Assembly: GCA_003228685.1 (NCBI GenBank)
Contig: QIFC01000115.1
Coordinates: 6,028-70,027, forward strand
DNA length: 64,000 nucleotides
Direction: 5' to 3'
Source of the DNA: Chloroflexota bacterium
Lineage (GTDB): Bacteria > Chloroflexota > Dehalococcoidia > DSTF01 > RBG-16-68-14
Shown here: positions 32,954 through 59,728 of the stretch, in pieces
Position numbering within the stretch: the stretch's first letter is position 1
Layout: the number at the start of each line of letters is the position of its first letter
Position numbers and translations under genes: made by a program
The notes under the pieces: generated by a model
Databases searched by the model: none
What the model saw: the letters and a program-made list of their open reading frames with translations, nothing else
What the model was told of the DNA's origin: nothing

Positions 32954-33324
32954 CCTCAGCCCCTTCCTCTCTGCCCCACCCCGCCGCTGACCCTCATGCC
33001 GCGCGGGAGTGTCGTGCTGACTGCCCTTCTAAAGACAGCCGTGGCCGGCATGCACGACCTCCACTTCACCTCATCCACCCGTACCGACGTGCTTGTCGGC
33101 CTCGCACACGGGCCTGATTCCTCACTCAGGCCCACTGAACTGGGAGTAAGCTTACCACACATAATGTGTAACGTAGCAGCCCGCGTCCTAGCCAGTATTT
33201 AACACATGTTAAGAGTACTACGGGGCTGGACTGCGGGGTATTAGGGTTTTCCCTTAATTGTGCTAACAGTCCGTCATAGGGAGCCCGGTCCGTGACGCTT
33301 CGAGAGACCTCAAGCTTGGGCGGC

Positions 33325-34332
33325 TCAGAGGCATCTGAACAGGTTGAGTTCGATCCAGAGGATGAACAGGGCATCGAGGGGGTCAACGACGCCGTCGCCG
33401 TTGACGTCGCCCGGGTGAGGCAGGCTGGGGATCATGGTGGTGCTGAACCAGAGCACCCAGAGCGCATCCTCCGCGTTGACGCGCCGGTCGCCGTTGACAT
33501 CGCCGCAGGGGAGGATGGCGCTGACGAAGGTGGCGGTCGGCGTCACCGGAGGCGGCGTGGCGGTGGGCGACGGCGTGGGTGTCGACAGGTCCGGCGTCGG
33601 CGTTACCGTGTCCGTGGGGCCGCCGGGGGTGCGCGTGGGCCCCGGCGTGGGCGTGGGCGGCTCGCCGCAGATCATGGTCAGCCCCGTGGTCTTGGGAACG
33701 ACATCCTCGTTGTCCGGGCCGCGGAACAACGAGCCGACGGTGCCGGTGGGGGAGGCGTCCGACGAGAACCTGGCGTAGGGGAGCATCTCAATTGGGTTGC
33801 TGCTGTCCCGCGGCGAACAGACCAGGACGATCTCCACGCCGATGCCGACGAAGCTGCTCGGCGGCGGCGCTATGATGCCGGAGAGGCAGCCGTGGCTGAC
33901 GAGCGTGTCGGTGTTATTCCCCAAACCGGGGAGCCGCTGGTCTGTCTGGGACTTCAGGGCGGTGGCGGGTTCGCAGTTCGGCCAGAGGATCTCAGAAATG
34001 GCGGTTGGCGAGAAGTCGTACGTGATGGCGCTGCCGTAGAGGATGGACGACTGGAAGATGATGTAGCCGGGGTCGCCGTTGCTGTCGGCGGCCGGGGCGC
34101 GGACGATCTCCACGCCGAGCTTGAAGGACTCGTTGGTGGCGAGCTGACACACCCCTTCCACGCAAACGTCCGGCGGGTCCGTCACAAGGAGCCGCATCTC
34201 GGGTCCTTCTCCGAAACCGGACGTCGGCGTCGCCGTCTGATCGGCCAGGACCAGCGTAAGGGCCAGCAGCAGTCCCAGTCCGAGGAGGAACGCTGTGAGA
34301 TGCTTGGCACGCCGTCCGGGTTGCACGCTCAT
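33325..34332 (-). CDS. secreted protein: cohesin-like N-module, PT linker and type-I-like dockerin
   Basis: The ATG at 34332 follows GGAGGG. Signal peptide LTAFLLGLGLLLALTLVLA. The module runs GPEMRLLV...GLTMICG. The C-terminus is CGDVNGDRRVNAEDALWVL...GDVNGDGVVDPLDALFIL. Confidence 0.8.
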   Translation of the reverse strand: MSVQPGRRAKHLTAFLLGLGLLLALTLVLADQTATPTSGFGEGPEMRLLVTDPPDVCVEGVCQLATNESFKLGVEIVRAPAADSNGDPGYIIFQSSILYGSAITYDFSPTAISEILWPNCEPATALKSQTDQRLPGLGNNTDTLVSHGCLSGIIAPPPSSFVGIGVEIVLVCSPRDSSNPIEMLPYARFSSDASPTGTVGSLFRGPDNEDVVPKTTGLTMICGEPPTPTPGPTRTPGGPTDTVTPTPDLSTPTPSPTATPPPVTPTATFVSAILPCGDVNGDRRVNAEDALWVLWFSTTMIPSLPHPGDVNGDGVVDPLDALFILWIELNLFRCL

Positions 34333-34539
34333 CGACCGGATCCCTCCAGAAAGCCCCACCCATCACGTCCGGTTCTGCCGCCGCCGATCTACAGCGGCTA
34401 TCGATCAGTTTACCATACGTGCGCTGAGCGGCCGTAGCGGGACTGGGGCGTCTCCTCAATCAGAGGGGGCACCCCGACTTGCGTCGGAGCGCCCCCCCAA
34501 TGAATCTCGAGTATCGTTACGCGTTCGCGATAACGGCTC

Positions 34540-35487
34540 CTAGCAGGTAAGCCTGTCCTGGTCGAGCAGACCGGCAACTACTTGCTGGATGAGAGCGGCG
34601 TCTCTGCTGTCCACGTTGCCGTCGCCGTTCACGTCCGCCTGATCACCCTTCGGCAGGCGGTCTGCGCCGTCAATGAGCCCGGCCTCTACTTGGAGGATGA
34701 GGAGCGCGTCTACGGCGTCCACCGCCTCGTTGTCGTTGACGTCGCCACACTGCTGTTCCGACGGGGTGCTGGTCGGCGGGACCGGCGTATTCGTCGGCGT
34801 GTTGGTGGGCGTGTCGACCGGTACGTCGTCCGGCGTGTTGGTCGGCGTTTCGTCCGGCACGTCCGGCGTGTCGGTTGGATCACCGCCACCAGCACCGCAG
34901 ACGATAGTGATGTTGCTCACCTTCGGAATAATGGGATTATCGCCAGGATCCTTGAACAGCGCGCCATTGGTGAGAGCGATCGGGTCGCCCTCTGGTAGCA
35001 GTTGCACTAACGTGCTGCTATCACCAGCCGAGCAGTTCATGGAATAGTTCAGAAAGTTGCCCGTGTAGGTGCTTACGGGACGCACCAGAATCCCGGTGAT
35101 GCAACCGCTAAGGACCGACTCTGGGTCCAACTGATCCCGCAGCGCTATAGACGCAGGGCTGCACTCTGGGAAGGAGAACTCGTCGAGAGGCAAATCCGTT
35201 GGCTTGTAGGTCAGGTCAGAGCCAAATACGACATATGACTGGGCCAAAATGTAGCCTTCGGCCGGCGCCGTCAAGACCTCCACCGAGAGGGTAAAGGCAG
35301 CGCCCGGTTCGACCGTGCAGGTGGAGCCTTCGCAAGTCCCACCTTCGCTGACTGTCAACGCCATCTCCGGGCCACCTTCGGCCGCGTCCGTGGTGCTGGT
35401 CAGGTTATCGGCCATGAAGAACGTCATTGCCAGCAGGGCAATCACGGCTGCCGCGCCGAGCCCTAGAATCCTTTTGCTTCGCTCCAT
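34540..35487 (-). CDS. secreted protein: cohesin-like N-module, PT/D linker and type-I-like dockerin
   Basis: The ATG at 35487 lies 6 nt after AAGGAGGT. The module runs GPEMALTVSEGGTCEGSTC...NITIVCG. The C-terminus is CGDVNDNEAVDAVDALLILQ...DVNGDGNVDSRDAALIQQ. Confidence 0.8.
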   Translation of the reverse strand: MERSKRILGLGAAAVIALLAMTFFMADNLTSTTDAAEGGPEMALTVSEGGTCEGSTCTVEPGAAFTLSVEVLTAPAEGYILAQSYVVFGSDLTYKPTDLPLDEFSFPECSPASIALRDQLDPESVLSGCITGILVRPVSTYTGNFLNYSMNCSAGDSSTLVQLLPEGDPIALTNGALFKDPGDNPIIPKVSNITIVCGAGGGDPTDTPDVPDETPTNTPDDVPVDTPTNTPTNTPVPPTSTPSEQQCGDVNDNEAVDAVDALLILQVEAGLIDGADRLPKGDQADVNGDGNVDSRDAALIQQVVAGLLDQDRLTC

Positions 35488-35525
35488 GCTGTTACCTCCT
35501 TGCATTTCCTACTTGGTCTCTACTC

Positions 35526-36317
35526 CTAGCGGCTGCGTGCCGCGCGCCAGCCGGACGCACCGAGGCCGGCGGCGCCAATGGCGAATAGGCCGCCGATCAC
35601 GAGCCACAGCATCGCGTTAGAACCATTGTCACCGGTCGAAAGCGGACCGCTCCCTGAGGGCGGAAGCACGATATCGCCGTCGCCGTCTCCGTCGCCGTCT
35701 CCGTCCGGGGTCGCGGTCGGCTCTGGCGGCGCTTCGCCGCAGTTGACCGTCACGGAGGCAACCTTGGGGAAGATCTGCTCGCCATTGTCCCCCGTCAAGA
35801 GAGCGCCGCTCGTGCCCGCGACGGGGTCGCCCTCGGGCAGCAACTGCACGTTGTTGCTGGAGAAGGTGTCGCTGCATTCCATTGCAAGCTCGAATACGGA
35901 GCCTTCGTAGGTGCTCAGCGGCAGCGGCGGGATGACGCCCGTGAGGCCGCCGTGCAGCACGGTATTTGGCGCAATCGAGTCGCGGACGACGACGTCCGGT
36001 ATCACGTCTGGCCACGTGACCTCTTCTCCGGCAGTGTCGGTCATATTGTATGTAAGGTCTGGGCCGTAATCGATGAACGACTGCACGAGCACGTAACCCT
36101 CGGCAGGCGCGGCGTCGACGTTGACTGTAAGTGTGAACGACTCTCCAAGATCGAGGTCGCACTCATCACCAGAGCATCCTGACACGCTGAGCGACATTGC
36201 TGCCGCTTCTTCAGCCAGCGCTGCCGGCTGAGCGAGGTGGCCCAGCATGAACACCGCGGCAAGGGCGGCGCCGATGATTGCTATGCGACTGAATGTGTTC
36301 CGTCCCTGTACTCCCAT
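35526..36317 (-). CDS. cell-wall-anchored protein: single cohesin-like module plus an LPPSG sorting signal (no dockerin)
   Basis: Signal peptide, then a module AMSLSVSGCSGDEC...SVTVNCG. It ends in DGDGDGDGDIVLPPSGSG + LWLVIGGLFAIGAAGLGASGW + RAARSR, that is, LPXTG-like motif, TM helix and basic tail. Confidence 0.8.
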   Translation of the reverse strand: MGVQGRNTFSRIAIIGAALAAVFMLGHLAQPAALAEEAAAMSLSVSGCSGDECDLDLGESFTLTVNVDAAPAEGYVLVQSFIDYGPDLTYNMTDTAGEEVTWPDVIPDVVVRDSIAPNTVLHGGLTGVIPPLPLSTYEGSVFELAMECSDTFSSNNVQLLPEGDPVAGTSGALLTGDNGEQIFPKVASVTVNCGEAPPEPTATPDGDGDGDGDGDIVLPPSGSGPLSTGDNGSNAMLWLVIGGLFAIGAAGLGASGWRAARSR

Positions 36318-36574
36318 GTTTATCCTTCCTCCTGCTTCCAGTCTTACCCCAAGAACCTACGGCAGGGCCATTCTCCCGAGGAGTTCAGCCCAACCTCTAC
36401 CCAATACTGTGTGTGTCCCCCGCCACCAAATGCGGAAAGTCACCCCAGCACAGGGCTTAGCCTAGCGCATTGGCCAACAGAGCACCATGTCTCATTCGCC
36501 GGGCGCTATCCAAGTTCGCAACAATAATACTGGATCGTTCCGCATGCGCAAGGCCACGTTCGGCAGCTACGAGT

Positions 36575-36609
36575 CCGGGGGAGCCGTCCGTATGTGGCGG
36601 CTCCCCCGG
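36575..36609 (-). terminator. 12-bp GC-rich hairpin downstream of the 36632 gene
   Basis: ccgggggagccg-tccgtatgtgg-cggctcccccgg begins about 23 nt after the stop on the minus strand. I see no clear U-tract. Confidence 0.6.
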
Positions 36610-36631
36610 AGAATATCAGGCTTCGAAGGCG

Positions 36632-37465
36632 CTAAGGCTGGTTGCAGGGCAGTTGGAACTGCAGGATCGTGCCTAGGATGTCGTTTGCCAAGTCGATGAA
36701 GCCATCGCTATTGATGTCGAACGCGGGGCTCCAGTCAGGATCGAGGGGCGTCATCTGGAACCGGATAATCACGCCCAGGATGTCGTTCGCCAAGTCGACG
36801 ACTCCGTCTCCGTTTGGTGGCGGCGAGTTGTCCGCGCAACCAAGGTAGACGATGTTGGAGTTCTTCAAGGTGAGCGGTATCTGCTCCAAATCCAGGTCGA
36901 CCGGAGCGTCAAGCAGGAACGTTCCCTGAACGCCGACATCTGGGGCCACAAACGCGAGCGGCGAAGAGAGGGCCATCTCTGAGCCTGGAGTCAGCACGAG
37001 GTGCCCGATCAAGCCGGTGCCGGTCGGCCCCAGGGGCGGAGGAGGACTCAATGTTGAGCACAGTCCGATGACTTGACCTGCCTGGGGGTTCTGACCGGGA
37101 ATGCACGCTCCGGACCGGTTGGTTGACTGGAGCCACGCCCTGTCGCCAATCCCGTCTGCGTCGCCAGGGGCGGCGGAAGCTGCGAAGAGGGAGTCATCAT
37201 ACTGTACGGCGATGTTGAAGCCCGAGACGCCGGTAGGCTCCTTGACGTTGGTAGCCCACACGTAGATGTCACGTGGAAATCCGTTTGGAGTGAGGATGAT
37301 AGCCGGTGCGCCTATAGGACTTAGGCTTGAATAGCTGAACATGATCTGCGTGTCGGTTGCGCTCTCGGCGCTGGGTTGCCGCGCCAGGCTTAACGTGATA
37401 ACAACCGCGGCTGCCAGGATAACGACCTTCGTCAGAGTGAGCGTGCTGCCTATCAAGACCTTCAC
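36632..37465 (-). CDS. secreted protein: cohesin-like domain plus a 'DLANDILG'-type double dockerin-like module
   Basis: The GTG at 37465 lies 4 nt after AGGAGGAAG. TGVSGFNIAVQYDDSLF is a cohesin-like strand. The C-terminus is DGVVDLANDILGVIIRFQ...DGFIDLANDILGTILQFQ. Confidence 0.75.
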   Translation of the reverse strand: MKVLIGSTLTLTKVVILAAAVVITLSLARQPSAESATDTQIMFSYSSLSPIGAPAIILTPNGFPRDIYVWATNVKEPTGVSGFNIAVQYDDSLFAASAAPGDADGIGDRAWLQSTNRSGACIPGQNPQAGQVIGLCSTLSPPPPLGPTGTGLIGHLVLTPGSEMALSSPLAFVAPDVGVQGTFLLDAPVDLDLEQIPLTLKNSNIVYLGCADNSPPPNGDGVVDLANDILGVIIRFQMTPLDPDWSPAFDINSDGFIDLANDILGTILQFQLPCNQP

Positions 37466-37769
37466 TAAACTTCCTCCTGCGCCGTTCTTCGCCGGCAGGC
37501 GCCTCGTCTTCTGCTCCCCACGTCTATTCACGCCGCCGTAAGAGCCCTCAGGCGCACCAACGTATCGCCTGAGTCTTGCGCGCTACGAACGCTTGCGTTG
37601 CGTCATTCCTTAGCACTCTGCGTCTCTCCATTAATCCAACGGTCGAATGCGACAATTCGTAACGCAATCTGTCGCTGTCGTGCCTTTTTCTGATGGCTCC
37701 CCTCGTCAAGGCCCGCGTCCCGTCCCTCCCGGGACCTAACGAGGACAGCCATGCCGGCCAGAAGATGAA

Positions 37770-37812
37770 GGGACGGGGGAGCCGAACTCTTGGTCCGGTG
37801 CTCCCCCGTCCC
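37770..37812 (-). terminator. 13-bp perfect hairpin downstream of the 37895 gene
   Basis: gggacgggggagc-(17 nt)-gctcccccgtccc begins about 80 nt after the stop on the minus strand. Confidence 0.6.
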
Positions 37813-37894
37813 TGTGGTCACTCCTTGACCTGCTGTATTTGCTTTCCCCGCAACCTCTTTCTCAGGTTACGGACTAACTACGTTCGTTGCCTCC

Positions 37895-39424
37895 TTAGGC
37901 CTTCGGGTTGACCGGATCCTGCGTCGGGTGCGGTGTCTCGCAGGTGCTGCCGAATCTGCCGAATACGAACTGTAGGTCGTTGATATCGATGTCCAAGTCC
38001 GACTGCTGGCTTGAGGGCTCCAGGTTCATGAAGTCCTTGTAGATCAGGCTGCCCTTCTCTACGCCCCAGCGGAAGGCGATCGCTTGTGCGTCAACAGCAG
38101 TGACGGCACAGTCAGCATCCACATCTCCCTCGAGGTAGCGGAACGTGATGCTCGCGTCGTCGCAGGAGAAGATCGGAATCGCGTGGCCCTGCTCGTCGCC
38201 AAGGTCACAGTTCACGTTGCTGATGAAGACGACGTTACCGTTGTCCTGGTTCGGCTTCATTTCCGAGTACAGGTCCGGCTGCGGGTAGATGTCCACGGAA
38301 GCCAGTGCAAGCAGCTCATCGATCGCGTGGCCCTTGCCAACGGTGACACAACCGATGCGGGCTACGCCCTCGAGCTGCGGCTTGGAGTCAGGCTGGTCAT
38401 CTTCGATGATGCAGATGGCCGGTCCAGGAGACTCCGGGTCCTTGATCGGGTTGCCACCCCACTCTTCGCCTGCGTTGATGTCAACACAGACCTTCTTGTT
38501 GTCGTAGCGCACCTCGAACTCGAAGGCTGCGAGCTGCTGGAATTCGCTCTCGCCCTTGGGGTCCGGAGAGACGATTTCCTGGTTCAGAATCTCGGCGAGC
38601 TCGCCAACGTTGGCGTTTGTCCCCTTGGTCGACAGACAAGAACTCGGAGGAATCTTCGCGCCCTGGCGCGTCAGGAACACGTTCTGCAGCGCCGGGTCCT
38701 TGCTCATGCGCGGGATCGGCGGCGGCGTCGCTGTCGGCGTCGCGGTCGGTCCAGGTGCGCAGTTCACAGTAAGACCGGTGACGGACGGGTTAATCTGCTT
38801 GTCCGTGCCGCCCTCGGTGAAGAACGTTCCGTTCGTCAGAGCGGGAGCTTGGTCACCCACAATCAGGGTCAGTACGGACGTGCTGGCCGTGGTCGTGCAC
38901 GTGAACGAGAACCCGAACAGGTCGCCCACGTAGTCGCTGATCGGCAACGGCGGAATGCCTGCCGTGGTGGCGCCAGCTTGGTAGCCGTTGTTCGCCACGT
39001 CATCGATCGTGAGGAACGGGCCGAACGCCTGGTCCCAGATCATACATGGGTCCCCAACGCCCGTGTCGCACTTGTTGTCGACCGGAACGCCTGTGGCATC
39101 CGCGGGCTTGGTTACTAGGCCCTGGTTGTCGTAGTCGATCCACGTGTTCACCAGGACATAGCCACCGGTCGGGATCACGTCCGCGACCGAGATGACATTA
39201 AACTTTGCGCCCAGGGGTACACAGACCTTGCCTGCTGCAGGATTGGCGCAGTCGAAAGCGTCGCCGGCGGGTATGCGCAGGCTGACTTGCGGATCCTGGT
39301 TGTCTGGGTTGAGCGCACTAGCGCTGTCGGAGCTTTGGCCAATTGCAAAGACCATGACCGCTACCGCAATTGCGAGCAGCGGAAGGCCCAGCAGACCCAG
39401 CACCTTGATTCGGTTGATATTCAC
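37895..39424 (-). CDS. secreted protein: cohesin-like N-module, second cohesin-like module and a '[14 protein letters not shown]'-type dockerin-like module
   Basis: The GTG start lies 7 nt after TAGGAGGT. The N-module runs DPQVSLRIPAGDAFDC...GLTVNCA. The C-terminal half (FEFEVRYDNKKV..IGCVTVG..) plus GDVDADCAVTAVDAQAIAFRWG...[20 protein letters not shown] parallels aa ~1330-1543 of the scaffoldin. Confidence 0.8.
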   Translation of the reverse strand: MNINRIKVLGLLGLPLLAIAVAVMVFAIGQSSDSASALNPDNQDPQVSLRIPAGDAFDCANPAAGKVCVPLGAKFNVISVADVIPTGGYVLVNTWIDYDNQGLVTKPADATGVPVDNKCDTGVGDPCMIWDQAFGPFLTIDDVANNGYQAGATTAGIPPLPISDYVGDLFGFSFTCTTTASTSVLTLIVGDQAPALTNGTFFTEGGTDKQINPSVTGLTVNCAPGPTATPTATPPPIPRMSKDPALQNVFLTRQGAKIPPSSCLSTKGTNANVGELAEILNQEIVSPDPKGESEFQQLAAFEFEVRYDNKKVCVDINAGEEWGGNPIKDPESPGPAICIIEDDQPDSKPQLEGVARIGCVTVGKGHAIDELLALASVDIYPQPDLYSEMKPNQDNGNVVFISNVNCDLGDEQGHAIPIFSCDDASITFRYLEGDVDADCAVTAVDAQAIAFRWGVEKGSLIYKDFMNLEPSSQQSDLDIDINDLQFVFGRFGSTCETPHPTQDPVNPKA

Positions 39425-39761
39425 TTATTCGACCTCCTACCGAGAAGTTGATACTTCTCTACCTTGTTGATGTTGCCTTGTGTAATGCTAGACATCCCCC
39501 CTTTCATGGCTCCAGACGGGGTAGGAACCAATGCCAATACGGCGAACTAGCAATCAACCGGGCGGGTTCGGCGATTGGTCAATTTTGGCCGCAGCGCGAC
39601 CGTCTCAGGCGGGGTACCTGTGGAATTTCTTCCACCAGCTTGTCCTTGTATATCATGGGTACCTGTCTTTGTCAACCCATCCCTCATGGGTACATTACGC
39701 TTCAAACCAGATTCCGACCCTCTCCTAGCTACGAGCCCAATGGGATTCCAGACGTATTTCA

Positions 39762-41966
39762 CTAGAGCAGCAGCGAGCAGTCTTGTGTGAAGTTCTGGAT
39801 TACGGGCAACATATCGAAGGCCAGGCCGACGAATCCGTCACCGTCGAAGTCGTAGAGCACGTCGAATTCGATGTCACTATCCGAGAGGCCGAGGGACTCA
39901 ATCATCGTGAGAATGTCGTTAGCCAGGTCAACAATGAGGTCTCCGTCGATATCGAAGCAGGCGCGTAGCAGGGTCGTTTCGCTCGCGTCGTTGCCCGCTG
40001 GTATCTCGTCGGGGTCGGACGCGGTGACGGTCACGCTGTTGATGATGTTCCTGTCCTCCAGCAGGGTTGGGGCCCGCACGTTGAGCGTGATCACCACCTG
40101 CTGGTTGACGTTGATCTCGTCGATGGTGCATTCCACTTTGTCGCCAGGTATCGCCTGACAGGCGGCGCCAACCGCGGACTCGAACGTGGCTGGCCTAAAG
40201 ACCGAGCCGGTGACGAGCGTAATGCTCGCGAGGGGCAGCGTGTCCGTCACAACAACGTCCAAGGCGTCTCCCAGGCCCTGGTTGAGGACGGTGATCTCGT
40301 AGCTGTAGTAGCCCAGGCGCAGCACAGGATCTTGGGAGTCCGTCTTTGAGACGACGAGGTCCGGTGGCGGCGCGATCACGGCTGTGTTCTCGACAGCTAG
40401 GTTGTTGCCTGTCTGGAGGAACAGCTCGTTGTCGGAGGTGACGAACGCCGAGTTCTTGAGGAAGGTACTTCTCGTGACTTCCGGCGCGGTCAGGACGATC
40501 TGGACGATCGACTCCGCGTTGGGAGCGAGCTTGCCGAGGTCGCACGTCACCTCACCGCTGTCCAATACGCACCCGGGGCCGGCCGAGACGAACGCCGCCT
40601 CCGGCGGCAGGGTGTCGACAATCTGGACGTTCTGCGCCGGGTGCGGCCCCAGGTTCTTAGCGACGAGGGTGTACGTGACGTCCTCACCACCGTCCAGAAA
40701 CGTGGGATCCCCTACCTTGGTAAGGATGACGTCGGAACGGGGCGCCAGCACCATCGTCTGCTCGATGTCTTTGTTGTTCCCCGTGTTGGCGAACGGTTCG
40801 TTCGTGGACGTCACGGTCACATTGTTGTCCACCAGCGCGTCCGTCACCTGCGTGGGCGCGTTGACGGTGATATCGATTGTGATGATATCGGTGGGCGCCA
40901 TGTCGCTCGTGACAGCGCAGGTCACGACGCCGGCCACGTGGTTGCACGTGGCATCGGCGGACGCCGCCGACTTGAACACTGATCCGGCGGGCAGCGTGTC
41001 TTCAACGACGACATTTTCGGCGGTCTGCAGTCCGATACTCTCGACCGTGATCTGATACGAAAGGCTGCCACCTGAGTCGACCGGGTCGATGAGGTCGACT
41101 TTCGTGACCTTCACGTCGGGCCGCTCGCTGGGTGGAGGGAGCGGCGTTGGCGTGTTCGTCGGCGTCGGCGATACGGTCGGCGTGGGCGTCGGCGGTATCG
41201 GCGTGTCCGTGGGTGTAGGTGTCGGGCCGACGCACTTGATCGTGAGCGTGTCCACCTTCGGTATTATTTGCGTGTTCGTACCGAATTCGGTGAACAGACT
41301 GCCGCTGGTCCCAGCCAGTGGGTCTCCTTCAGGGAGTAGCCGCACGAGCGTGCTGCTGGAGGAGGCGGAGCAGTTGATGTTAAGGATCACGAGGTTGCCA
41401 ATGTAGTCACTCGGCGGCTGTGGAGGAATTAGCGCGGTCAGTCCGCCATGGCCGATCGAAGCTGGAGCAATGTCCGTCCTGAGTGCGCCGCCGGGGAACA
41501 AGTGGGGCCAGACAACCTCATCACTCGGAAAGGTCGTGGGTTTGTAGGTCAAGTCCTCGGTTACGCAGTCGGCGTCTCTCCTGTCCGCGCCGCCGCCGCC
41601 ATTATCGATGTTGTCGCTGCACGTATTGGGGCCGTAGCCATCTTCGCTTGCGCTTGGGTTGTACGTGCCGAAGTCAACGAATGTATTCATCAGGATGTAC
41701 CCGCCGGCCGGGATACCCACTGCCTCTACGGCTAAGGTGAAGGGATCTTCAGCCATGACACATATCGTGTCCGGCCCGGTTCCCAGCGGACACGTTGTGC
41801 TGCCGCTCTTGACTGAAAGCGCCATCTCGGGCCCACCGCCAGCGGCCTCGGCTCGCTCATGAGCCGGCTGTTGCCATGTAAGGACGACCGCTACGGCCGC
41901 CACAATAATGGCCGGTACGATCAGAAGTCGCAGAGCCATCCTCTTCCGTTTCGTGTTGCCCTCCAT
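39762..41966 (-). CDS. secreted protein: cohesin-like N-module, PT linker, DUF11-type repeats and a 'DLANDIL'-type dockerin-like module
   Basis: AAGGAGGAGGG precedes the ATG. The module runs GPEMALSVKSGSTTC...TLTIKCVG. There are about 4 repeats of the pattern V.K.....V..G..V.Y.I.V.N.G...A.NV.V.DTLP, which I take as DUF11-like. The C-terminus is DGDLIVDLANDILTMI...DGDGFVGLAFDMLPVI. Confidence 0.8.
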   Translation of the reverse strand: MEGNTKRKRMALRLLIVPAIIVAAVAVVLTWQQPAHERAEAAGGGPEMALSVKSGSTTCPLGTGPDTICVMAEDPFTLAVEAVGIPAGGYILMNTFVDFGTYNPSASEDGYGPNTCSDNIDNGGGGADRRDADCVTEDLTYKPTTFPSDEVVWPHLFPGGALRTDIAPASIGHGGLTALIPPQPPSDYIGNLVILNINCSASSSSTLVRLLPEGDPLAGTSGSLFTEFGTNTQIIPKVDTLTIKCVGPTPTPTDTPIPPTPTPTVSPTPTNTPTPLPPPSERPDVKVTKVDLIDPVDSGGSLSYQITVESIGLQTAENVVVEDTLPAGSVFKSAASADATCNHVAGVVTCAVTSDMAPTDIITIDITVNAPTQVTDALVDNNVTVTSTNEPFANTGNNKDIEQTMVLAPRSDVILTKVGDPTFLDGGEDVTYTLVAKNLGPHPAQNVQIVDTLPPEAAFVSAGPGCVLDSGEVTCDLGKLAPNAESIVQIVLTAPEVTRSTFLKNSAFVTSDNELFLQTGNNLAVENTAVIAPPPDLVVSKTDSQDPVLRLGYYSYEITVLNQGLGDALDVVVTDTLPLASITLVTGSVFRPATFESAVGAACQAIPGDKVECTIDEINVNQQVVITLNVRAPTLLEDRNIINSVTVTASDPDEIPAGNDASETTLLRACFDIDGDLIVDLANDILTMIESLGLSDSDIEFDVLYDFDGDGFVGLAFDMLPVIQNFTQDCSLLL

Positions 41967-42023
41967 GTCGTGCCCTCCTCCTTGATCCTTCGTGCCCGAA
42001 TTCTGACGTTCAGGAATCCCCTA

Positions 42024-43754
42024 TTATACAGGCAGGCGCGGCAGCAGACCTGCATCGAATTGCAGGACGAGCGCGGCGTCCACACTATTGATTCCACCGC
42101 CGTTGACGTCGCCTTCCGCATCGCATGGGAGCGACGACACCAGCCCCGCGACGCGCTGTAGGATCAGGGCCGCATCGACGCTGTTCGTCGTCGCGTCACA
42201 GTTCACGTCGCCCGATCCACCCGTGATGCCCGCTGGCCCCGCGCAGCTCGCTGCGTCGATGTCGTCCGTCTGGCGCAGGCCGAGTGTCGCGGCGCTGTAC
42301 GCCACGACCGGTGGACTTCCGGCCTTGATCATGTCGCCCGCACTGGCCCCTATCGCGGGCAGGGTAGGCGAGCCCGGCGCCAACGAGAACAGCAGCGTGT
42401 CTGATGCGCTGTAGACGTCGTCACCACGTTCAACGAGGCAGAGGCCGTCGACGTCGTCCGTCGCCTGAAGACCCAGTTGTTCGCGAGATGCGTAGAGGGA
42501 TGGAGTCTCGGCGTTCGAGGTGCGCAGTATATCGCCCGCGGTGAAGCCGAGCGCGGCCAGAGAAGGCGACGAGGCGTCCAGAGAGAAATAGACTGGGCTC
42601 TCCGGCACGCCGTCCGCGTTCCGGTCGACGACCGATGGATCCCAGGCAACGAACGCATCCAGCTCATCTCTCATGGACACCGCTTCGAGAAGCCCGAGCG
42701 GGAAGGCTGCCTGGCAAGCGCCCACTGGCCCGTTTCCGTCAAAGAGAAGCAAATTCGTCCCAGCCAGCAGCGAGCGAAAGATATCCGACTCTGGTTCCGG
42801 GGAGAGGCCGGGCTCCGCGGGAGGGCAGAGGCTCTGCACCTCTACGGCGCTGCCGTCGCTGCCGAGCGCTCCGGCAGTCACAGAGAAGTCGACCGCCGGT
42901 TCAGTCTCCACGACCGCTGAGCCGAACGACAGAGCGTCTACGTTGTCTTGGCCAAAGGAATCATCGCAGCCGTCGTCCGAGAGCCCCAGACTATCGCACG
43001 CAATGCGCAGATACGGCGCCTGACCGACGCCTGGCAGCGCCACGGCCGGCAAAATTCCGAGAATGTCCGCTGGATGGAATTGGGACGCATCTCTACCAAC
43101 TGAGAAGCTCGCCGGGAGCGGGGCCACCGCGATACTCAGGCTACGGATGCAGAGTCCCAGTTCGGATTCGAGGTTCGCCTCGTCCACAAGCGGGATGCAG
43201 GCGTCCGATTCAGGAAGCTCGAACGTCACGTCAAACGGTGGCCATGCTTCAAGGAGAGTTGCTGTTCCGTCCGATGCGGGCTCCAGGTCCAGACTGGCTT
43301 CATTGTGCAGAAGCAAGGGGCCAGCGGGGCTGGAAGGCACCTCCAGATCGAGGAACAGGTTTAACGTGGCCGTAGCCGGGAAGGGCTGGCCGGGCGTGAT
43401 GCCACGCAGTTGACCACCTGACTTGTATGATTCTCCGGCGTTCGCCCGTTCCGTGACGGCCACGAGACCGAAACGGCTCGCGCCAACAAGCTCAAGGCTG
43501 GCGATCTCAAGGTCCACGATCTCAATGCCATCCTCCGTATGCGGTGCTCCGCGGATCACCTCAATCCAACCTCTTAGGATCACCAGATCCTCGCCCAGCA
43601 GACTGCCCGCCTCAGCGACCACGGCCACGGGAAGCACATCGGCGCCAACTACCGGCATGCCGCCTGCCCTGGCGGGGCTGCCGGCTCCCGCCAGCACCAC
43701 GAAGGAGAGGGCGCAGACGCCTGCCATCGCGTAACCTGCAGTGCGAATGTTCAT
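42024..43754 (-). CDS. secreted protein of unknown fold with a C-terminal type-I-like dockerin
   Basis: The ATG at 43754 gives the signal peptide MNIRTAGYAMAGVCALSFVVLAGAGSPARA. The longer ORF start at 43862 would overlap the scaffoldin stop by 4 nt. The C-terminus is GDVNCDATTNSVDAALILQ...GDVNGGGINSVDAALVLQ. Confidence 0.75.
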   Translation of the reverse strand: MNIRTAGYAMAGVCALSFVVLAGAGSPARAGGMPVVGADVLPVAVVAEAGSLLGEDLVILRGWIEVIRGAPHTEDGIEIVDLEIASLELVGASRFGLVAVTERANAGESYKSGGQLRGITPGQPFPATATLNLFLDLEVPSSPAGPLLLHNEASLDLEPASDGTATLLEAWPPFDVTFELPESDACIPLVDEANLESELGLCIRSLSIAVAPLPASFSVGRDASQFHPADILGILPAVALPGVGQAPYLRIACDSLGLSDDGCDDSFGQDNVDALSFGSAVVETEPAVDFSVTAGALGSDGSAVEVQSLCPPAEPGLSPEPESDIFRSLLAGTNLLLFDGNGPVGACQAAFPLGLLEAVSMRDELDAFVAWDPSVVDRNADGVPESPVYFSLDASSPSLAALGFTAGDILRTSNAETPSLYASREQLGLQATDDVDGLCLVERGDDVYSASDTLLFSLAPGSPTLPAIGASAGDMIKAGSPPVVAYSAATLGLRQTDDIDAASCAGPAGITGGSGDVNCDATTNSVDAALILQRVAGLVSSLPCDAEGDVNGGGINSVDAALVLQFDAGLLPRLPV

Positions 43755-43858
43755 GAGAACCGGGCCTTCGACCCGCTGCGAGGCGGGAATACCAGCTTGG
43801 AGAGGGCGTGGCGCCAGTATACGTTCCCTCTTAACAGTGTCGCAAACAGCTAGCCTGT

Positions 43859-46800
43859 TCAAGGCCTAGTGTCCTGCCGCTCGGACGCTAGGACCTCTCT
43901 GAACCGAAGCCTGAACGGTTCCCGCGCGCTCACTCTCTGACGTCGCCACCAAAGCATCCGTGACCCGATCAACATGGCGAGGCCGCCGAGCAGGGCCGCG
44001 CCGGCCAATGATGTCGAGAGCCGGTCCTGGCTGTTTGAGCCGCTCCCTGTGTCTGGGAGGCCGACCACGGGCCCGCGTGCGGATGGCGCGACATCGCTGA
44101 CGGGTGTAGCCGTCGACGCGCCGATGACGGGCGGCCCGGTGTCGGTACCGTCCGTGGGCGTGGCGGTTGCCTGCGGGCTGTCGGTGGGCCTCGCGATGAA
44201 CACGGGCGTAGCCGTTGGGACCGGCGGCGAAGTCGACGTTGCTGTAGGCAGTGGCGTCGCTGTCGGCGGCCGCAGTGGCGTGGGCGTCGCGGTGTTTGGA
44301 AGAACGGGCGTGTCCGTGGCCGTTGCGTCTGGCGCTGGAGTATCGGTCACCGTGGCGCCCGGTACCGGCGTGTGCGTCGAGGTTGCCGTCACCGTAGCCA
44401 GCGTCGTTGGTGATGGCTCTGGCGTGCCCGAGCTGGACGGCTCCTCGGTTGGCGTAACCGTTGCCGTTACGGTCGGGAGCGGTGTCGCCGTTGGCGTGTC
44501 GCCCTCGGTTGGCGTGGCCGTCGGCGTCACGGTTGCGGCGGGCGTGCCAGCATCCTCACCGCCGGGCGTTGGCGTGCTCGTCGTGGCCGGAGTGACCGTC
44601 GCGCCGGGAGTCGTGGTGACGGTGGCCACAGGCGTCGGCGTTGGCGTCTGATCTATCGGCGATGGAGTCGGCGTAAACGTCGGCGTGGTCTTCGTGGGTG
44701 GTTCCTGCGCCTGCCACGGGTTCGCACAGGTGCTGCCATGACGGCCGTAGACGGCCTGCAGGTCGTTGATGTCGATGTCTCCGTCCGCCACGCCTTCCGG
44801 TTCCAGGTCGAACCATGTTTCGTAGAACTTGGAGCCCTTTTCAGCTCCGAAACGGGCGGCGACCATCTGCTCGTCTGAGACGTTCACCGCGCAGTCGGCG
44901 TTGATGTCCGACTCAAGGACACGGACGATGATTCTGGCATCTCCGACGAGGTTAAGCGGGATGGAGTTGCCGAGCGTATCCGAGAGCTGCGTATTGCCCG
45001 CGATATCGTCGAGGACCACCTCGATGCCGTTACCCGGCGCGGGGCGTAGCGGCAGATCTGAGAGAGGCGTGACATGGACGCGAGCGAGGTCGAACGTCCC
45101 GGTCGGGCCGGGGTCAGATCCAGACGTGACGCAGCCGAAGCGAATCTCTCCTTCCGTGAGGTCTGAGAGACAGGTAGCGGTGCGGTCCGTGCCTGCGATG
45201 GCATCTAGGAAGGGCTGACCATCAATTTCGAGCGATACAACCTTATGGTTGAACTTGATGGAAAGCTCAAATCCGCCTACCCCAGGCCCCGCCGGTGTGT
45301 TGTAGGCACGTTCGTAAATGATCAACGGCTCATTTCCGATGAAGAGGTTGGCTTCACTCGGTTCCTTGGCGATGGCCACCACCCCTTCGCCGGGCTCCAC
45401 GGCGGGAGCAGCGACGCTTTGCGTGCCGTCCGGATAGGCGACGGCCAATTTGCCTGACGTGACGGCAACTCTCAACGGTGCAGGAGAGATCCCGGACAGG
45501 GATGGGCTTCCCGGCGTGGCTGTCGGCGTCTGCGTTGCGGCCGGGAGAGGCGTGGCCGTCGATGGCGCGACAACTCCAATGATGCCGTCCTGTGTCACGA
45601 TGGGCAGCAGAAGCGCGCTCGAAATGTCTGTGAGGATCGGGTTAGACAGGTGCTGCGTTGAAAGACCTTCGCCGACGGCCAGGTAGGTGAACGTCGCGAT
45701 GACGCCGGAACCGTCAGGTCCAGGGACGATGGAGCCAATCGATGCGCAGGCGAAGTCCACGAATCCGGCTCCGAACGTCGCCGGAAGACAGGCGAGACTC
45801 CTTCCGGTGCTGCCCAGGAACGGGCCAACTGCAACCTCTTGTATTGTTGTCACCGCCGGGCTGAAGTCGAGCCTAAATTGGAAGGCCCCCAGGTCGGTCA
45901 CGTTCTCCACGACGACGTCGACGGAGGTGATTGTTCCCAGGTCCACTGTCTGATTTGTCGGCTGGATACGCATCGTAATCGGGCCAACTGCGGGCGTTGG
46001 CGTCGCTGTTGGCGTGTCTATAGGTATGGGCGTGTCCGTTGGCGTGGGTGTATCTGTTGGCGTTTGCGTGATGGTGGCCGTCGGGCAGATGCCGCCTGGA
46101 CACGGGGTTGGTGAGAGCGTCGGTGTTGGCGTGTCCGAAGGCGTTGGACTCAGCGTCGTCGTCGGTGTGCTGCTTGGCGTGACGGTTGGAGCGACGCCGA
46201 CGGACAGCGAGCCGCCTTGAAGCACCGGTGCCAGATGGGCGAGCCCTCCAATGTCCGTCAGGATCACGTCCTGGAGCGTCAGTGATGTGAAGCCGATGGC
46301 GTCTCCGGTCAAGGTGACGAATGCCAAGACTCCCGAGCCGGTGGGCCCTGCAGGCTCGGGTTCAAGCGTAACGCAGACGTATTGGATGATCCCTGGGCCA
46401 AACGTTGGGGCTAGACACGTGGTGTTCCGCAGCGTGCTCGAAAGGAAGGGTCCTGGGTCGATCCCGGTCACCGATGCGACGGCCACATCGTGGGTCAGCG
46501 TTACCTGGAATGCGCCCAACTCAGGCGAATTAGCGACCGCGATTTCGTAGACGGCGTCGCTGCCTTGGGCGATCGACTGGTCGGCAGGCTGGAGGCAGAC
46601 GGTGAGCACTAAGGCCGCGTTACAGGCCGGCGGCGTTGGTGTGGCGCTCGGCGTAGCTGTTGGACCTGTGGGCGTGGACGTTGGCGTGGCCGACGGTGGC
46701 GCCGGTGTGGGACACGTGATGTTGCCCAACACGGTCACGTCACTACCCTGGGAAGCGACGGGAATGGGGAGGCCGGCCGTGTCCGCGATCTCCAGCGAAC

Positions 46801-49354
46801 TCAGTTCCAGCACGTCGCTCCCAGTGCAGAACGTCCCAAGGCGGACGTTCGCCAGAACGCCGCTCCCCGTGATGCCGGGCGCGCTACTCATGACACAGCC
46901 GTAGGCCATTGTGCCGGCGATCGGATCGACGTCGGGGCCGACGCAGACGACGCCGCCCCCGGTCGACGCGAGGAACGGACCGTTGGTGATGCTGTCGAAC
47001 GTCAGTAGGGTCGGGTCGAACGCAAGCGTAAACTGGTAGGCACCGAGGTCGGCGACGCTATCAATCTCAAGTCCGAAGACAACGTCCGCGCCTTCGGTGA
47101 CGCCCTGTGAGCTTGGGTTGAAGCGGACGTTCGTAGCGGGAGTTGGGGCCGGCGGCGTTGGTGTGTTCGTTGATGTCGGTGTTGGTGTTGGGACGGGCGT
47201 TGGGCAGCCCGTGCTGCCGATCACCGTCGCGCTGCCGTTCTGGCTCGCGGCCGCTATCGGACTGCCGGCTGAATCGGCGAGGCTTAGTTGTGTGATGGCC
47301 AAGCCGCTCGTGCCGCCGCAGAACGTAGCCAAACGAACAGTGGCAAGTACACCCGTCCCGTCAGGGCCAGCGGCGCCTGTCAGCGTACAGCCGATCTGGA
47401 CGGTCCCAGAGATCGGATTGACGTTGGGCCCGAGACAGAACGCCGCGCCTCCGGTGCTCTCAAGGAAGGCGCCATTGAGTGTATCAATGTGAGTCAGCAG
47501 GGTGGGGTCGTAGCTCAGCGTGAACGTGTAGCCGCCGAGGTCGGTGACGTCGTCGACCACAAGATCAACCACCACGTCAACGCCCTCGACCACGCCTTGG
47601 GAACTCGGATCTACTCGAACCAGCGTAGACGGGGCCGGCCCGGTCGGGGTCGCCGTAGGTATGGCCGTGGCGGTCGCTGTGGACGAAGGCGAGCAGCTTG
47701 TACCGCCGTTCACCCCAACGCTTGCATTGTGACCGACTGACGGTATCGCTCCGCCGACCGCGTCCGCGACGCTGACGTTCGCGAGTGTCAGCGCACCCGT
47801 CCCGGCGCATGAGGTTCCAAGCCGGACCGTTGCGAGCGTACCCGTGCCTGTGACGCCTGTCGCACTAGTTGACAAGCACCCGAAGCCGACCGTGCCCAGC
47901 GTTTCATCGACGGTGGGTCCGACGCAGACCACGGAGCCTCCGCTGCTACCCAGGAAGCTGCTGTTCGTGACATCCACGAACGTCAACAGCGATGGGTCAA
48001 AGGCGAGCGTGAAGTCGTATGCGCCCATCTCCGTGACAGCGTCAATGACGACATCGATGACGACATCGGCGCCCTCGCCGACGTTCTGGGCGTTCGGGTC
48101 GATGCGAACGACGGTCTCCGGAAGCGGCCCTGGCGTCGGCGTGGCTGGCGGTGTCGGTGAGGGCACCGTCGCCGTTTCTGTCGGCGTAAATGTGTCGGTT
48201 GGTGTCAGCGTATCCGTAGGCGTTGGGGGATCCGCGATGGTGATGTCGCCGCCTTGTTCCGATGCGATGAGGATCTTGGCACTCGTAATATCCGCCAGAA
48301 GCGTGTTCTCAAGCGTTAGGGTTGAGAAGCCGACGGCATCTGCCTGGAGCACTACGAGCGCCAACATGCCCGAGCCGTCCGGACCGGGCGGTTCGGTGCC
48401 AATCGATGCGCAGGCGAATGTCACTCGGTCTGGCAGCAGTTCAGGCAGGCAAACTATGGAGCGGCCGGTACTGCCCAAGAAGGCTGCGTTCAATACCGCG
48501 GCCGGTGACAGCAGTACGCTGTCGAAGACCAGATCGAACTGGAACGCCCCCAGGTTCGCGACGTTGTCAACGGCGATCAGGACCTCAGCCTGCCCGCCGG
48601 TGAAGGCGGCCTGCGAGACCGGCACGACACAGATGGCCGGACCGGCTGCGGCCGCACAGAGCTGCGGTGCTGGCGTTGGGGGCGGGCCTGTCGAGGTGGC
48701 CGTGGCCGTCGGCGTCGGACTCGGCGTAGGTGACGCGGGTCCGGGCGTTGGGGTCACGGTTGGCGTCGGACAGGCGCCGCCCCCAGTTACCGAAGCGCTG
48801 CCGTCTTGAGTCTGCGATGGAAGACCTGTTCCGAGTGCATCTCCAAGACCGGCAAGGGTGAAAGCGAGTGGAGTTGAGCCGGCGCATGATGTGCTGAACG
48901 TGATTGTTGCCAGTACGCCGCTGCCGCTCGGCCCATCTGGCGGCGGTGGCGCAAAGGTCACGCAGCCGTAGCGGACCGTGTCCGGACCGAGCTGCGGCGG
49001 CAGACAGGTGACACTTCTGCCAGTACTGCCGAGGAATGGGCCGTTCGTGACCGAGACGAAGGTTAGGATGCTCGGTTCGTATTGGATCTCGAACTCGTAG
49101 GCCGCAAGGCTTGTGACATTGTCGATGCGAATGTCGACGACGACGTCTGTTCCCGCGGAGACGTTCTGCGCCGGCGGGTCGACTCGAATGATGGTCGCAG
49201 GCGTCGGCGTAGGCGTAGGCTGCTGCGCTTGGGCTGTCGATGGAGCGAGCGTGCCTGTCGCTATCAAGAGGACGAGCACAGCTAAGGCCGCTCCGGCTCG
49301 TACTACAGTGGCCAGATGCAAGAGACTGGTCTCGCCGGAGGAGCGCAGCATCAT
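43859..49354 (-). CDS. 1831-aa scaffoldin-like protein: 7 tandem cohesin modules, 1 divergent cohesin, a dockerin-like module, a ~200-aa PT stalk and an LPDTG sortase signal
   Basis: Signal peptide ..[10 protein letters not shown]. Repeated ~140-aa modules follow the pattern (V/I)R(V/I)DP..Q.V..G.DVVVD..(I/V)D.V..LGAY.F.L..DP..L..V......FLGSTG....C.....G.V..GC.......G.GVLA...... and are separated by PT linkers. The C-terminus is [10 protein letters not shown] + hydrophobic helix + WWRRQR. Confidence 0.85.
45569..49195 (-). repeat. seven tandem ~420-nt cohesin-coding modules separated by PT-linker low-complexity DNA
   Basis: Module boundaries come from a hand count of the translation: aa 54-193, 232-373, 413-553, 577-716, 741-880, 910-1054 and 1124-1262. 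Confidence 0.75.
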
Positions 49355-51405: not shown

Positions 51406-51723
51406 TTAGTAGCGGAACCAGACCTTTCCCAGGATCAAGTTGGCCGGCACGGGGCCGAACGCGCGGCTGTCGGTGCTTGCGTCCGCATGATCGCCCGCCA
51501 CCTCGACACTGTTGCCGTGCGTTGTGTCGATCCGCTTGATTAGCAATCGTTCCGGCTCGCGGGGGTCACGCAGCACGACGATGTCGCCCGCCCTCGGGGG
51601 GCGGAACCAGTAGGAGGCTCGGCTGACAACAACGCGCTCGCCGGGAGACACCGAGGGCGCCATGCTCTCCCCTTCGACCACGAATCGGTCGAAGGGGAGC
51701 AGAGCGCGCAATCGGCGCAGCAT
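51406..51723 (-). CDS. sodX: nickel-type superoxide dismutase maturation protease (S26/S24 signal-peptidase-like)
   Basis: VEGESMAPSVSPGERVVV, GDIVVLRDP, LIKRI and DSRAFGPV. It sits immediately downstream of sodN. Confidence 0.8.
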   Translation of the reverse strand: MLRRLRALLPFDRFVVEGESMAPSVSPGERVVVSRASYWFRPPRAGDIVVLRDPREPERLLIKRIDTTHGNSVEVAGDHADASTDSRAFGPVPANLILGKVWFRY

Positions 51724-51743
51724 GAATCGTGTTGCGGCCGGCG

Positions 51744-52315: not shown

Positions 52316-52414
52316 AGTGGCATTTCGCTGTAAATAGACTTCAAAAGCGAGCGACACGAATGGCTGCTATGATCGTTCGTTGATCATCTTCGCTCATCTA
52401 TGAGGGAGGCTGCT

Positions 52415-57004: not shown

Positions 57005-57095
57005 CACTGCCCTGTGCCTCCTTGCGCCGCTCCTTGGGAAGGTCGTCAGGAGGAAAGGTCGCCGGGATGAGGAGAAACCCTTACGACGGGATGGC

Positions 57096-59353: not shown

Positions 59354-59728
59354 GCTGACCTCCTCTTTTGATTCCTGGCGACGCACCCAAGGGTTGGGCG
59401 CGTGGCACCTTCCTGTATCAGTGCTGCCGGTTGCTCAGACGCTTACCTCCCCTGTCAGCGGCATGACGAATACAGCCGAACGCCGCAGAGCGGCCGGCAC
59501 TGCCAGATGCGATTGGACGGTGGAACTCCCGCAGTCACTCGCGGGGAACGAAATACAATGGTGCGAGACCACCAGTCGCCGCTGGTCTACACGGCTGTCT
59601 AGAATCGTCAAGAGCCATATGGCAGGTAGGAAGCTAACCTCGCCCGCCCGCTTTCCCGTGAGCCCTTGGCTTAGCCCGCGCGAGGCCCATCCCGCTCAGA
59701 TGTTCCAGCGAGCCTCTAGATCGTTGCG

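Follow-up and report, generated by a model that had tools for sequence, protein, structure and literature searches.

A multi-cohesin scaffoldin with an internal cohesin-dockerin dyad and a putative sortase anchor in uncultured Dehalococcoidia

Scaffoldins with many cohesins are considered typical of the cellulolytic Clostridia and Ruminococci. CipA (ScaA) of Clostridium (Acetivibrio) thermocellum has nine type I cohesins, an X module and a type II dockerin (3kcp, 4fl4, 2b59). Peer et al. are said to have surveyed the non-cellulosomal cohesins and dockerins in 2009. These cases comprise a single or very few modules, and an anchored scaffold with 8-14 cohesins and a dedicated operon is not known among them. 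Here, we report on a gene for a scaffoldin of 1831 amino acids (aa) in a stretch of 64,000 nucleotides (nt) from a Chloroflexota bacterium of the Dehalococcoidia (assembly GCA_003228685.1, contig QIFC01000115.1, positions 6,028 to 70,027; G+C about 64%), hereafter the window. In our judgment the protein is probably a non-cellulosomal scaffold, anchored by sortase, for cohesin-dockerin display, and would form the backbone of an assembly on the cell surface of uncultured Dehalococcoidia.

In Ruminococcus flavefaciens the scaffoldin ScaB combines two cohesin subtypes with an X-dockerin, and ScaE is sortase-anchored via LPXTG (PMC12484212, PMC11557425). The Ruminococcus bromii amylosome has some proteins with both a cohesin and a dockerin, and one of its cohesin proteins is sortase-anchored (PMC4611034). 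How does the Dehalococcoidia protein compare? Like CipA, it has a run of cohesins and then a C-proximal dyad which ends in a type II-like dockerin. Unlike in CipA, the module ahead of the dockerin has a predicted cohesin fold and is not an immunoglobulin (Ig)-like X module, there is no CBM3, the cargo does not consist of carbohydrate-active enzymes (CAZymes), and the phylum is Chloroflexota, not Bacillota. Further, the dockerin has an internal position, ahead of a stalk and of the protein's own LPXTG-type anchor; thus the protein unites the roles of a primary and an anchoring scaffoldin. With ScaB and ScaE it shares more than one cohesin class per scaffoldin and, as predicted, covalent sortase anchoring in place of S-layer homology domains. 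Yet here the multi-cohesin scaffold itself bears the LPXTG signal, and its dockerin is type II-like, not of the ruminococcal type III. The R. flavefaciens sequences are only distantly related, and the Pfam matches reported below span about two-thirds of the model. As in the amylosome, a cohesin-dockerin role beyond cellulose degradation is indicated, and proteins with both modules could self-assemble. The amylosome components, however, are GH13 amylases, none of which were seen here, and its scaffoldins have 1-2 cohesins, fewer than the eight of the present protein or the as many as 14 of its relatives. Cohesins and dockerins outside of cellulose degradation are likewise represented by Archaeoglobus fulgidus (2xdh) and by NagH/NagJ of Clostridium perfringens (2ozn). 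Of the known proteins CipA comes nearest for the cohesin run with a type II dockerin dyad, and ScaB/ScaE for the mixed cohesin classes and the sortase anchoring. The protein would work like a cellulosomal scaffoldin; the differences are the cohesin in the place of the X module, the primary scaffold with its own anchor and the phylum. In the literature we found no description of such cohesin-dockerin scaffolds in Chloroflexota or Dehalococcoidia, or for the flexitail family discussed below.

The original prediction, made by a model from the letters and open reading frames (ORFs) of the stretch, had depicted a secreted scaffoldin in which several cohesins are combined with an internal dockerin, a stalk of Pro/Thr and an anchor of the LPXTG type. 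This core is supported by structure models, by sortase genes and by dockerin genes downstream. The ORF, the signal peptide, the stalk, the LPDTG motif, the transmembrane helix and WWRRQR are all present (Table 1), followed by 24 and not by the 25 residues that had been counted. The signal peptide has a basic n-region, a hydrophobic core and, at the predicted cleavage site, AQA (residues 41-43) followed by Q. The cohesins were delimited by a hidden Markov model (HMM) built from the protein's own eight modules. Its envelopes (aa 53-193, 238-376, 413-552, 576-715, 740-880, 916-1055, 1125-1265 and 1325-1480) agree with the earlier hand count to within a few residues. Pro/Thr linkers separate the first seven cohesins, and cohesin 8 is joined to the dockerin without a linker.

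All eight modules can be aligned end to end in pairwise comparisons, with identities of 31-55% at the protein level, and every copy has an FL(G/S)STGR-like motif and a Cys pair. Cohesin (PF00963) is the sole Pfam family found in the whole protein (129.2 bits, E 1.7e-37; gathering cut-off 24.1 bits), and a scan against NCBIfam returned no match above cut-off. When the modules are scanned singly a graded picture emerges: modules 1, 3, 4 and 5 pass with 26.6-37.8 bits, modules 2, 6 and 7 yield partial, sub-threshold matches (13.5-18 bits), and module 8 has no Cohesin match at all. Modules 2, 6 and 7 are 35-40% identical to module 1 (82-94 bits), and module 8 is about 30% identical to modules 1, 2 and 6. 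The protein has 32 Cys, and within the modules each of them finds a possible partner; the core pair is present in every module. In cohesin 1 the core pair is 117/131, with C157 and C195 in addition; class A modules have a second pair formed by a strand Cys and a Cys directly past the module end. Modules 2 and 6 carry an N-terminal Cx8C (C233/C242 and C911/C920), one residue wider than the CxxxxxxxC loop that had been proposed. Such an even, module-wise pairable set would fit a secreted, disulfide-bonded protein. Eight homologous modules, a Cys pair in each, and the preservation of the whole layout in orthologues place this architecture far beyond chance.

A neighbour-joining tree of the window modules and those of five relatives, together with the pairwise scores, resolves three clades: A (modules 1, 3, 4, 5), B (2, 6, 7) and C (8). 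Along the scaffold the order is A-B-A-A-A-B-B-C. The original prediction had seen two interleaved subtypes, with module 7 on the side of modules 1, 3, 4 and 5. These four do belong together; module 7 segregates with modules 2 and 6. It scores highest with module 2 (96 bits), followed by module 1 (94) and module 6 (89), and reaches just 67-68 bits with modules 3-5.

The same arrangement has persisted in other genomes. The orthologue P0001 is 57% identical over 97% coverage, P0002 is 51% identical, and both possess the signal peptide, seven plus one cohesins, the dockerin, the stalk, G-LPDTG, the helix and the tail, in which the motif F-x-(L/P)-R-F-R is kept. In the tree the modules of the window cluster by position with those of P0001 and P0002. 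P0002 is encoded on a 326-kb contig of the metagenome-assembled genome (MAG) GCA_029262675.1, and there the gene order is that of the window: a NuoB-like gene, the scaffoldin, a 587-aa dockerin protein, a 732-aa DUF11 protein, four smaller proteins and a dockerin protein. Because the orthologues were assembled independently and the operon is syntenic, the eight-module copy number can be considered ancestral to these lineages.

These data bear on the worry, raised with the original prediction, that the repeat number is an artefact of assembly, i.e., a collapse, an expansion or a chimera of paralogous modules. The type of reads behind the assembly is unknown and the Pro/Thr linkers are of low complexity, which speaks for such an error. 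Yet the DNA copies are only weakly alike. There are no long or near-identical repeats; the longest direct-repeat families are 53-60 nt with 64-73% identity (best about 72% over 53 nt), and the sole tandem repeats measure 24 and 37 nt. The divergence of the modules at the protein level points in the same direction, and two independently assembled orthologues share eight modules, their order in seven plus one positions, and the operon. An artefact is hardly credible.

The eighth module, without any Pfam match, is the most divergent one, and alone among the cohesins its fold was modelled. The AlphaFold2 (AF2) model, calculated on an alignment (A1) of 25 regions comprising module 8 and the dockerin, has a predicted local distance difference test score (pLDDT) of 94-98 for this module. 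A Foldseek search against the PDB returned cohesins exclusively among the top 50 matches, including 2xdh, 1g1k and 1aoh. The target-normalised TM-score is 0.7-0.8, with 1g1k at 0.80; 2xdh is the top structural neighbour. Module 8 is thereby predicted to have the cohesin fold, a nine-stranded beta-sandwich (jelly-roll), as had been suspected, and the module before the dockerin is a cohesin and not an Ig-like X module.

The dockerin-like module which follows ('dockC') had been called a flavour-C module of aa 1482-1543, and it is present. The dockerin part of alignment A1 is highly conserved (RALEGDVNxDCxVNVxDxQ...Y...DLEP...DGDIDIKDLQFVFGRxGSTC). Compared with solved structures, the profile of the whole dyad has its best match in the CohI9-X-DocII fragment of CipA of C. 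thermocellum (3kcp/4fl4, E 1.1e-5); the cohesin part aligned to CohI9 and the dockerin part to the type II dockerin. A dockerin-only profile from 35 homologues (A2) matched solved dockerins at E 2e-4 to 5e-2, led by 2y3n_B (2.2e-4), CelS (8e-4) and the CipA XDocII (1.2e-3); then came troponin C. Modelled alone, from 73 sequences, the dockerin reached a pLDDT of 90.7 and displays two helices (model residues 21-28 and 58-65). The top 11 Foldseek matches of this model are type II dockerins (2b59_B, 3kcp_A, 4u3s_B, 5m0y_B, 2y3n_B and others) with a root mean square deviation (rmsd) of 1.0-2.5 A and 24-31% identity. The CipA XDoc structures 2b59_B and 3kcp_A superimpose at 1.0-1.5 A with 29-30% identity, and dockerins from A. 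cellulolyticus, CipB and B. cellulosolvens are also among the type II matches. Type I dockerins appear only at E > 0.29. Best matched are therefore type II, scaffoldin-borne dockerins.

Dockerins have a duplicated Ca2+-binding loop-helix (F-hand) motif. Loop 1 (D1483-D1494; D1483, N1485, D1487, N1491, D1494) is canonical except for a Cys at the usual Gly position. In loop 2 (D1516-D1531; D1516, E1518, D1524, D1528, D1531) the ligand positions are acidic only when an insertion of 4 residues is accepted. Across homologues the acidic positions of both loops are invariant or almost so. A Cys pair, C1488/C1543, is located in the module. Three short relatives of dockC bear a precomputed PF00404 annotation. 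Taken together, the profile matches, the AF2 model and the Foldseek results identify a real, divergent type II-like dockerin. The candidate assignment of the scaffoldin to the flexitail surface proteins (NF041520) was rejected: the NCBIfam model scores 16.3 bits against a cut-off of 40 and covers the dockerin region only (profile positions 38-107).

The original prediction treated the dockerin as a separate add-on. This view does not hold. Among 75 scaffold-like relatives the last cohesin abuts dockC in 46. A survey with patterns derived from the dockerin, using one genome per species, yielded 165 loci, of which 75 were kept for ORF analysis. In every one of the 87 dockC ORFs in these loci a class C cohesin is positioned directly upstream of dockC. 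The internal dockerin is one half of an obligate cohesin-dockerin dyad and not a free-standing module. The dyad occurs in two kinds of ORF, multi-cohesin scaffolds and cargo proteins which end in it, such as the 509-aa protein of the window. In scaffolds with 5-14 cohesins a stalk comes after the dyad, and behind the stalk there is an LPXTG-like signal, a transmembrane helix, a flexitail domain or a second dockerin. The paralogue P0005 is an example from the Chloroflexota flexitail family: it has the same cohesin run and dyad, but a flexitail end (115.6 bits), whereas the window scaffoldin has no flexitail domain and ends with LPDTG and the helix.

Nearly all of the 165 loci are from Dehalococcoidia or Chloroflexota MAGs, and several genomes have more than one. 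Two loci, probably through mis-binning, are in bins labelled Acidimicrobiales and Streptomycetaceae. Among 1.84 billion representatives the dockC profile detected 1517 clusters at E <= 1e-3. Scaffold size in the family ranges from 4 to at least 14 cohesins. A relative in the Dehalococcoidia MAG LejiaD_68_21 (L012:1-12496, forward strand) has at least 4165 aa and 14 cohesins ahead of the dyad, and its ORF runs out of the locus. Databases name the relatives only 'cohesin domain-containing', 'hypothetical' or 'flexitail domain-containing putative surface protein'.

What, then, is displayed? A word-indexed search with the dockerin profile gave only fragments of <150 aa, and cargo proteins were taken from the ORFs of the fetched loci instead. 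In 33 dyad-bearing cargo proteins the Pfam matches are SpaA_2, Kelch, DUF11, SdrD_B, Peptidase_S8, Peptidase_M10 and Beta_helix. In the window the cargo consists of a module of about 180 aa and DUF11 repeats; in relatives SpaA-like, Kelch and S8 and M10 protease domains are added. According to Pfam, neither the scaffoldin nor its eight cluster neighbours nor the 33 dyad-bearing relatives contain a glycoside hydrolase, carbohydrate esterase, polysaccharide lyase (PL) or carbohydrate-binding module (CBM) family; single relatives show one weak fn3_3 (PL4 domain II) match and one Beta_helix match. This speaks against the scaffoldin of a true cellulosome, i.e., a plant-polysaccharide-degrading multi-enzyme complex in Chloroflexota, even though multiple cohesins, a type II-like dockerin and a sortase anchor occur together as in R. 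flavefaciens (PMC12484212). In the strict sense of the term partner dockerins sit on CAZymes and the scaffoldin usually has a CBM; neither CAZyme cargo nor a CBM was found here, and we consider a cellulosome very unlikely. Because the cargo are not carbohydrate-active enzymes, the complex is more likely a surface organelle for adhesion and proteolysis than a cellulosome.

The adhesin-like domains of the cargo-type relatives lend themselves to yet another interpretation. The protein might be a surface adhesin or a fibre associated with the S-layer, in which the cohesin folds are rigid spacers or adhesive beta-sandwiches which bind no dockerin. Non-cellulosomal cohesin folds without known partners, e.g., 2xdh and 2jh2, are indeed among the structural neighbours. 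On the other hand, the gene stands first in a conserved operon in which many secreted proteins have a dockerin, with at least six such genes downstream on the same strand. Further, the three cohesin classes are retained as positional orthologues across genomes at 51-57% identity, which suggests selection on distinct binding specificities and not on spacing alone. A mere spacer function is therefore improbable in our view.

How might the display scaffold operate? The protein would be exported via its Sec signal peptide. One of two adjacent class F-like sortases would cut LPDTG and link the protein to the cell wall. The seven disulfide-locked class A and B cohesins would serve as sockets for the dockerin proteins encoded downstream, which carry at least two dockerin flavours, canonical or flexitail-like, and docking would depend on Ca2+. 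Export, sortase attachment, cohesin display and Ca2+-dependent docking correspond to the established knowledge of these families (PMC12484212). The 210-residue stalk would hold the modules off the wall and span the envelope of peptidoglycan and S-layer. In Dehalococcoidia peptidoglycan is ancestral and was lost in some orders; the envelope of cultured basal members has a periplasm of about 40 nm with peptidoglycan, plus an S-layer (PMC10284905). By our own rough estimate the fully extended stalk measures about 60 nm. The dyad of class C cohesin and type II-like dockerin would be the counterpart of the clostridial X-module-dockerin dyad. Since the same dyad ends many cargo proteins, it probably links scaffolds and cargo by branching or daisy-chaining, and the cohesin within it could let the assemblies branch or form chains. 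As proposed originally, the scaffold may polymerise or dock into a further scaffold.

The operon combines three classes of cohesin with three flavours of dockerin, which makes three specificities plausible. An extension of this thought is that of a lineage-specific, cellulosome-independent surface system of the Dehalococcoidia. It would have three orthogonal pairs, class A, B and C cohesins being matched to canonical, flexitail-type and type II-like dockerins, respectively; the dyad would replace the X-dockerin, and branched, wall-anchored super-complexes would present adhesins and proteases beyond the S-layer. If this is so, no multi-cohesin scaffoldin system had been described before outside of the Bacillota. 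In this full form the proposal is tentative, and we would rather doubt it than rely on it.

Several observations weigh against the display scaffold. dockC has no match to Pfam Dockerin_1 even at E <= 10. In the AF2 model of the dyad the dockerin half is weak (pLDDT 45-55), and the model gives no information on the mutual arrangement of the two modules. No Pfam family is recognised in most of the 33 dyad-bearing proteins. The binding partners are inferred. With respect to the anchor, Pfam Gram_pos_anchor (PF00746) scores 11.7 bits against a cut-off of 20, NCBIfam gives no match, and the 12-residue spacer before the helix and the conserved 24-aa tail are atypical of sortase signals. The best NCBIfam model for the two sortases, class_F_sortase, gives 108 and 111 bits, under the cut-off of 166. 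Finally, the peptidoglycan genes of the source genome lie outside of the window.

The peculiarities of the C-terminus would also fit a C-terminally membrane-anchored type I protein that is not processed by sortase, with an idle LPDTG and a separate function for the conserved cytoplasmic tail. This tail, which comes after WWRRQR, is long and has the conserved F-x-(L/P)-R-F-R, the Pfam anchor model is sub-threshold, and several paralogous scaffolds have a transmembrane helix without an LPXTG motif. Nevertheless, the layout of an LPXTG substrate is evident, with LPDTG, a hydrophobic stretch (1783-1803) and RRQR (1804-1807). All three orthologues have G-LPDTG with an equal spacing to the helix, many paralogous scaffolds end with LPPTG, LPPSG, LPATG, LPNTG or LPSTG, and the cluster holds two sortase genes. 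These sortases are paralogous, 242 and 243 aa in length, and located at the end of the cohesin-dockerin cluster. We judge a type I membrane protein unlikely. Two sortases and two motif types in one cluster, LPDTG and LPPSG, are a hint of two substrate classes.

Table 1. Coordinates of the scaffoldin gene, its modules and associated genes in the window
Feature	Position (nt)	Strand	Basis or remarks
Scaffoldin ORF, 1831 aa	43859..49354	-	Stop codon 43859-43861; Pfam Cohesin 129 bits; orthologues P0001/P0002 alike in architecture
Sec-type signal peptide, aa 1-43	49226..49354	-	Read from translation
Cohesin 1, class A, aa 53-193	48776..49198	-	Pfam Cohesin 37.8 bits; own HMM
Cohesin 2, class B, aa 232-376	48227..48661	-	Pfam 15.2 bits, sub-threshold; 35% identity/82 bits to module 1; tree
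Cohesin 3, class A, aa 413-552	47699..48118	-	Pfam 34.1 bits
Cohesin 4, class A, aa 576-715	47210..47629	-	Pfam 29.3 bits
Cohesin 5, class A, aa 740-880	46715..47137	-	Pfam 26.6 bits
Cohesin 6, class B, aa 910-1055	46190..46627	-	Pfam 13.5 bits, sub-threshold; 37% identity/87 bits to module 1; tree
Cohesin 7, class B, aa 1125-1265	45560..45982	-	Pfam 18 bits, sub-threshold; nearest is module 2, 96 bits
Cohesin 8, class C (dyad cohesin), aa 1325-1480	44915..45382	-	No Pfam match; predicted by AF2 and Foldseek
Type II-like dockerin ('dockC'), aa 1481-1550	44705..44914	-	Profile against PDB; AF2 pLDDT 90.7; Foldseek
Thr/Pro-rich stalk, aa 1551-1760, 210 residues	44075..44704	-	T 31%, P 22%, A 12%
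LPDTG sortase motif, aa 1766-1770	44045..44059	-	G-LPDTG kept in P0001 and P0002
Hydrophobic helix aa 1783-1803, WWRRQR 1802-1807, 24-aa tail	43862..44008	-	Translation
612-aa protein	42024-43862	-	Dockerin_1
734-aa protein	downstream block	-	DUF11 x3 and dockerin-like C-terminus
509-aa protein	37895-39424	-	C-terminal dyad of class C cohesin and dockC
299-aa protein	36632-37531	-	Cohesin and flexitail-like dockerin
263-aa protein	35526-36317	-	LPPSG, then transmembrane helix
321-, 344- and 958-aa proteins	downstream block	-	Dockerin_1
Two class F-like sortase genes flanking a DUF3105 gene	26427-27155, 28018-28749	-	Pfam Sortase 75.5 and 73.1 bits

Downstream of the scaffoldin a same-strand block of genes for secreted proteins with a dockerin or with cohesin and dockerin extends over 30077..43862 (-). 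Promoter and terminator scans were at chance level, and no convincing terminators were detected between the downstream genes. As called, the first ORF of the block, 612 aa, has a TTG start which overlaps the stop codon of the scaffoldin; its orthologue has 587 aa. The true start is probably further downstream, because of the length of this orthologue and of a signal-peptide-like MNIRTAGYAMAGVCALSFVVLAG about 36 codons in. The C-terminus of the 509-aa protein (...DPVNPKA) is near-identical to that of a 1747-aa S8 peptidase (P0059) of a Chloroflexi MAG. The cohesin of the 299-aa protein scores 36.6 bits with the HMM of the scaffold's own modules and is closest to classes B and C; its C-terminal DGVVDLANDILGVI / DGFIDLANDILGTI repeat matches the second half of the flexitail model with 33 bits (cut-off 40). 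The 299-aa protein may be an adaptor. The 263-aa protein has the shared N-terminal module described next and no dockerin, and ends with ...VLPPSGSG, a transmembrane helix and RAARSR; it looks like a second sortase-type substrate of the operon.

Eight copies of an N-terminal module of about 160-200 aa are distributed over the block (30077-41966): one each in the 734-, 509-, 263-, 321- and 344-aa proteins and three in the 958-aa protein. The consensus is PEMxLxV..C...C...FTLxV...P..GY...Q...LTY...HG..TG..PP.P.S.Y.G......C.....LLP.G.P.AGT.GSLF....I.PKV..LT..C, with conserved Cys, and no Pfam family matches it. As a candidate for a further cohesin class the module (A5) was dropped; an hhalign comparison with the eight cohesins (A6) gave a probability of 0.6%.

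On the other side of the scaffoldin a full flexitail protein is encoded at 62605-63702 (-; 136 bits), with Asp-rich repeats like those of thrombospondin type 3, followed by a duplicated dockerin-like DGVIDLANDILGVI. This duplicated repeat makes up the second half of flexitail, and the domain appears to contain a dockerin-like core. A 306-aa protein at 58466-59386 (-) has one flexitail half-repeat only, a partial match. An 881-aa polytopic membrane protein (54647-57292, -) with many transmembrane helices and a large C-terminal soluble domain belongs to no Pfam or NCBIfam family. It recalls, at a guess, glycosyltransferases of the GT-C type, which would be relevant to a possible O-glycosylation of the Thr/Pro linkers. 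At 51406-52262 (-) a nickel superoxide dismutase gene (Sod_Ni) adjoins a gene for a small S26-type peptidase, which we take to be the usual sodN/sodX pair; in GCA_029262675.1 this pair likewise adjoins the scaffoldin operon. Two further regions, 18818-23656 (-) and 52400-53263 (+), encode an APH-like kinase, an AMP-binding ligase, an SDR, an acyl-CoA dehydrogenase and an enoyl-CoA hydratase. The predicted functions in fatty-acid and acyl-CoA metabolism indicate a heterotrophic lifestyle.

The display scaffold, if real, would supply synthetic scaffolds with new orthogonal cohesin-dockerin pairs and with a new kind of stabilised dyad, in which a cohesin stands for the X module. A connection with the unidentified protein complexes on the S-layer of cultured Dehalococcoidia (PMC10284905) is conceivable, but is pure speculation. 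Above all, it would carry the 'plug and socket' principle of cohesins and dockerins to surface adhesion and proteolysis in the Chloroflexota of soils and sediments.

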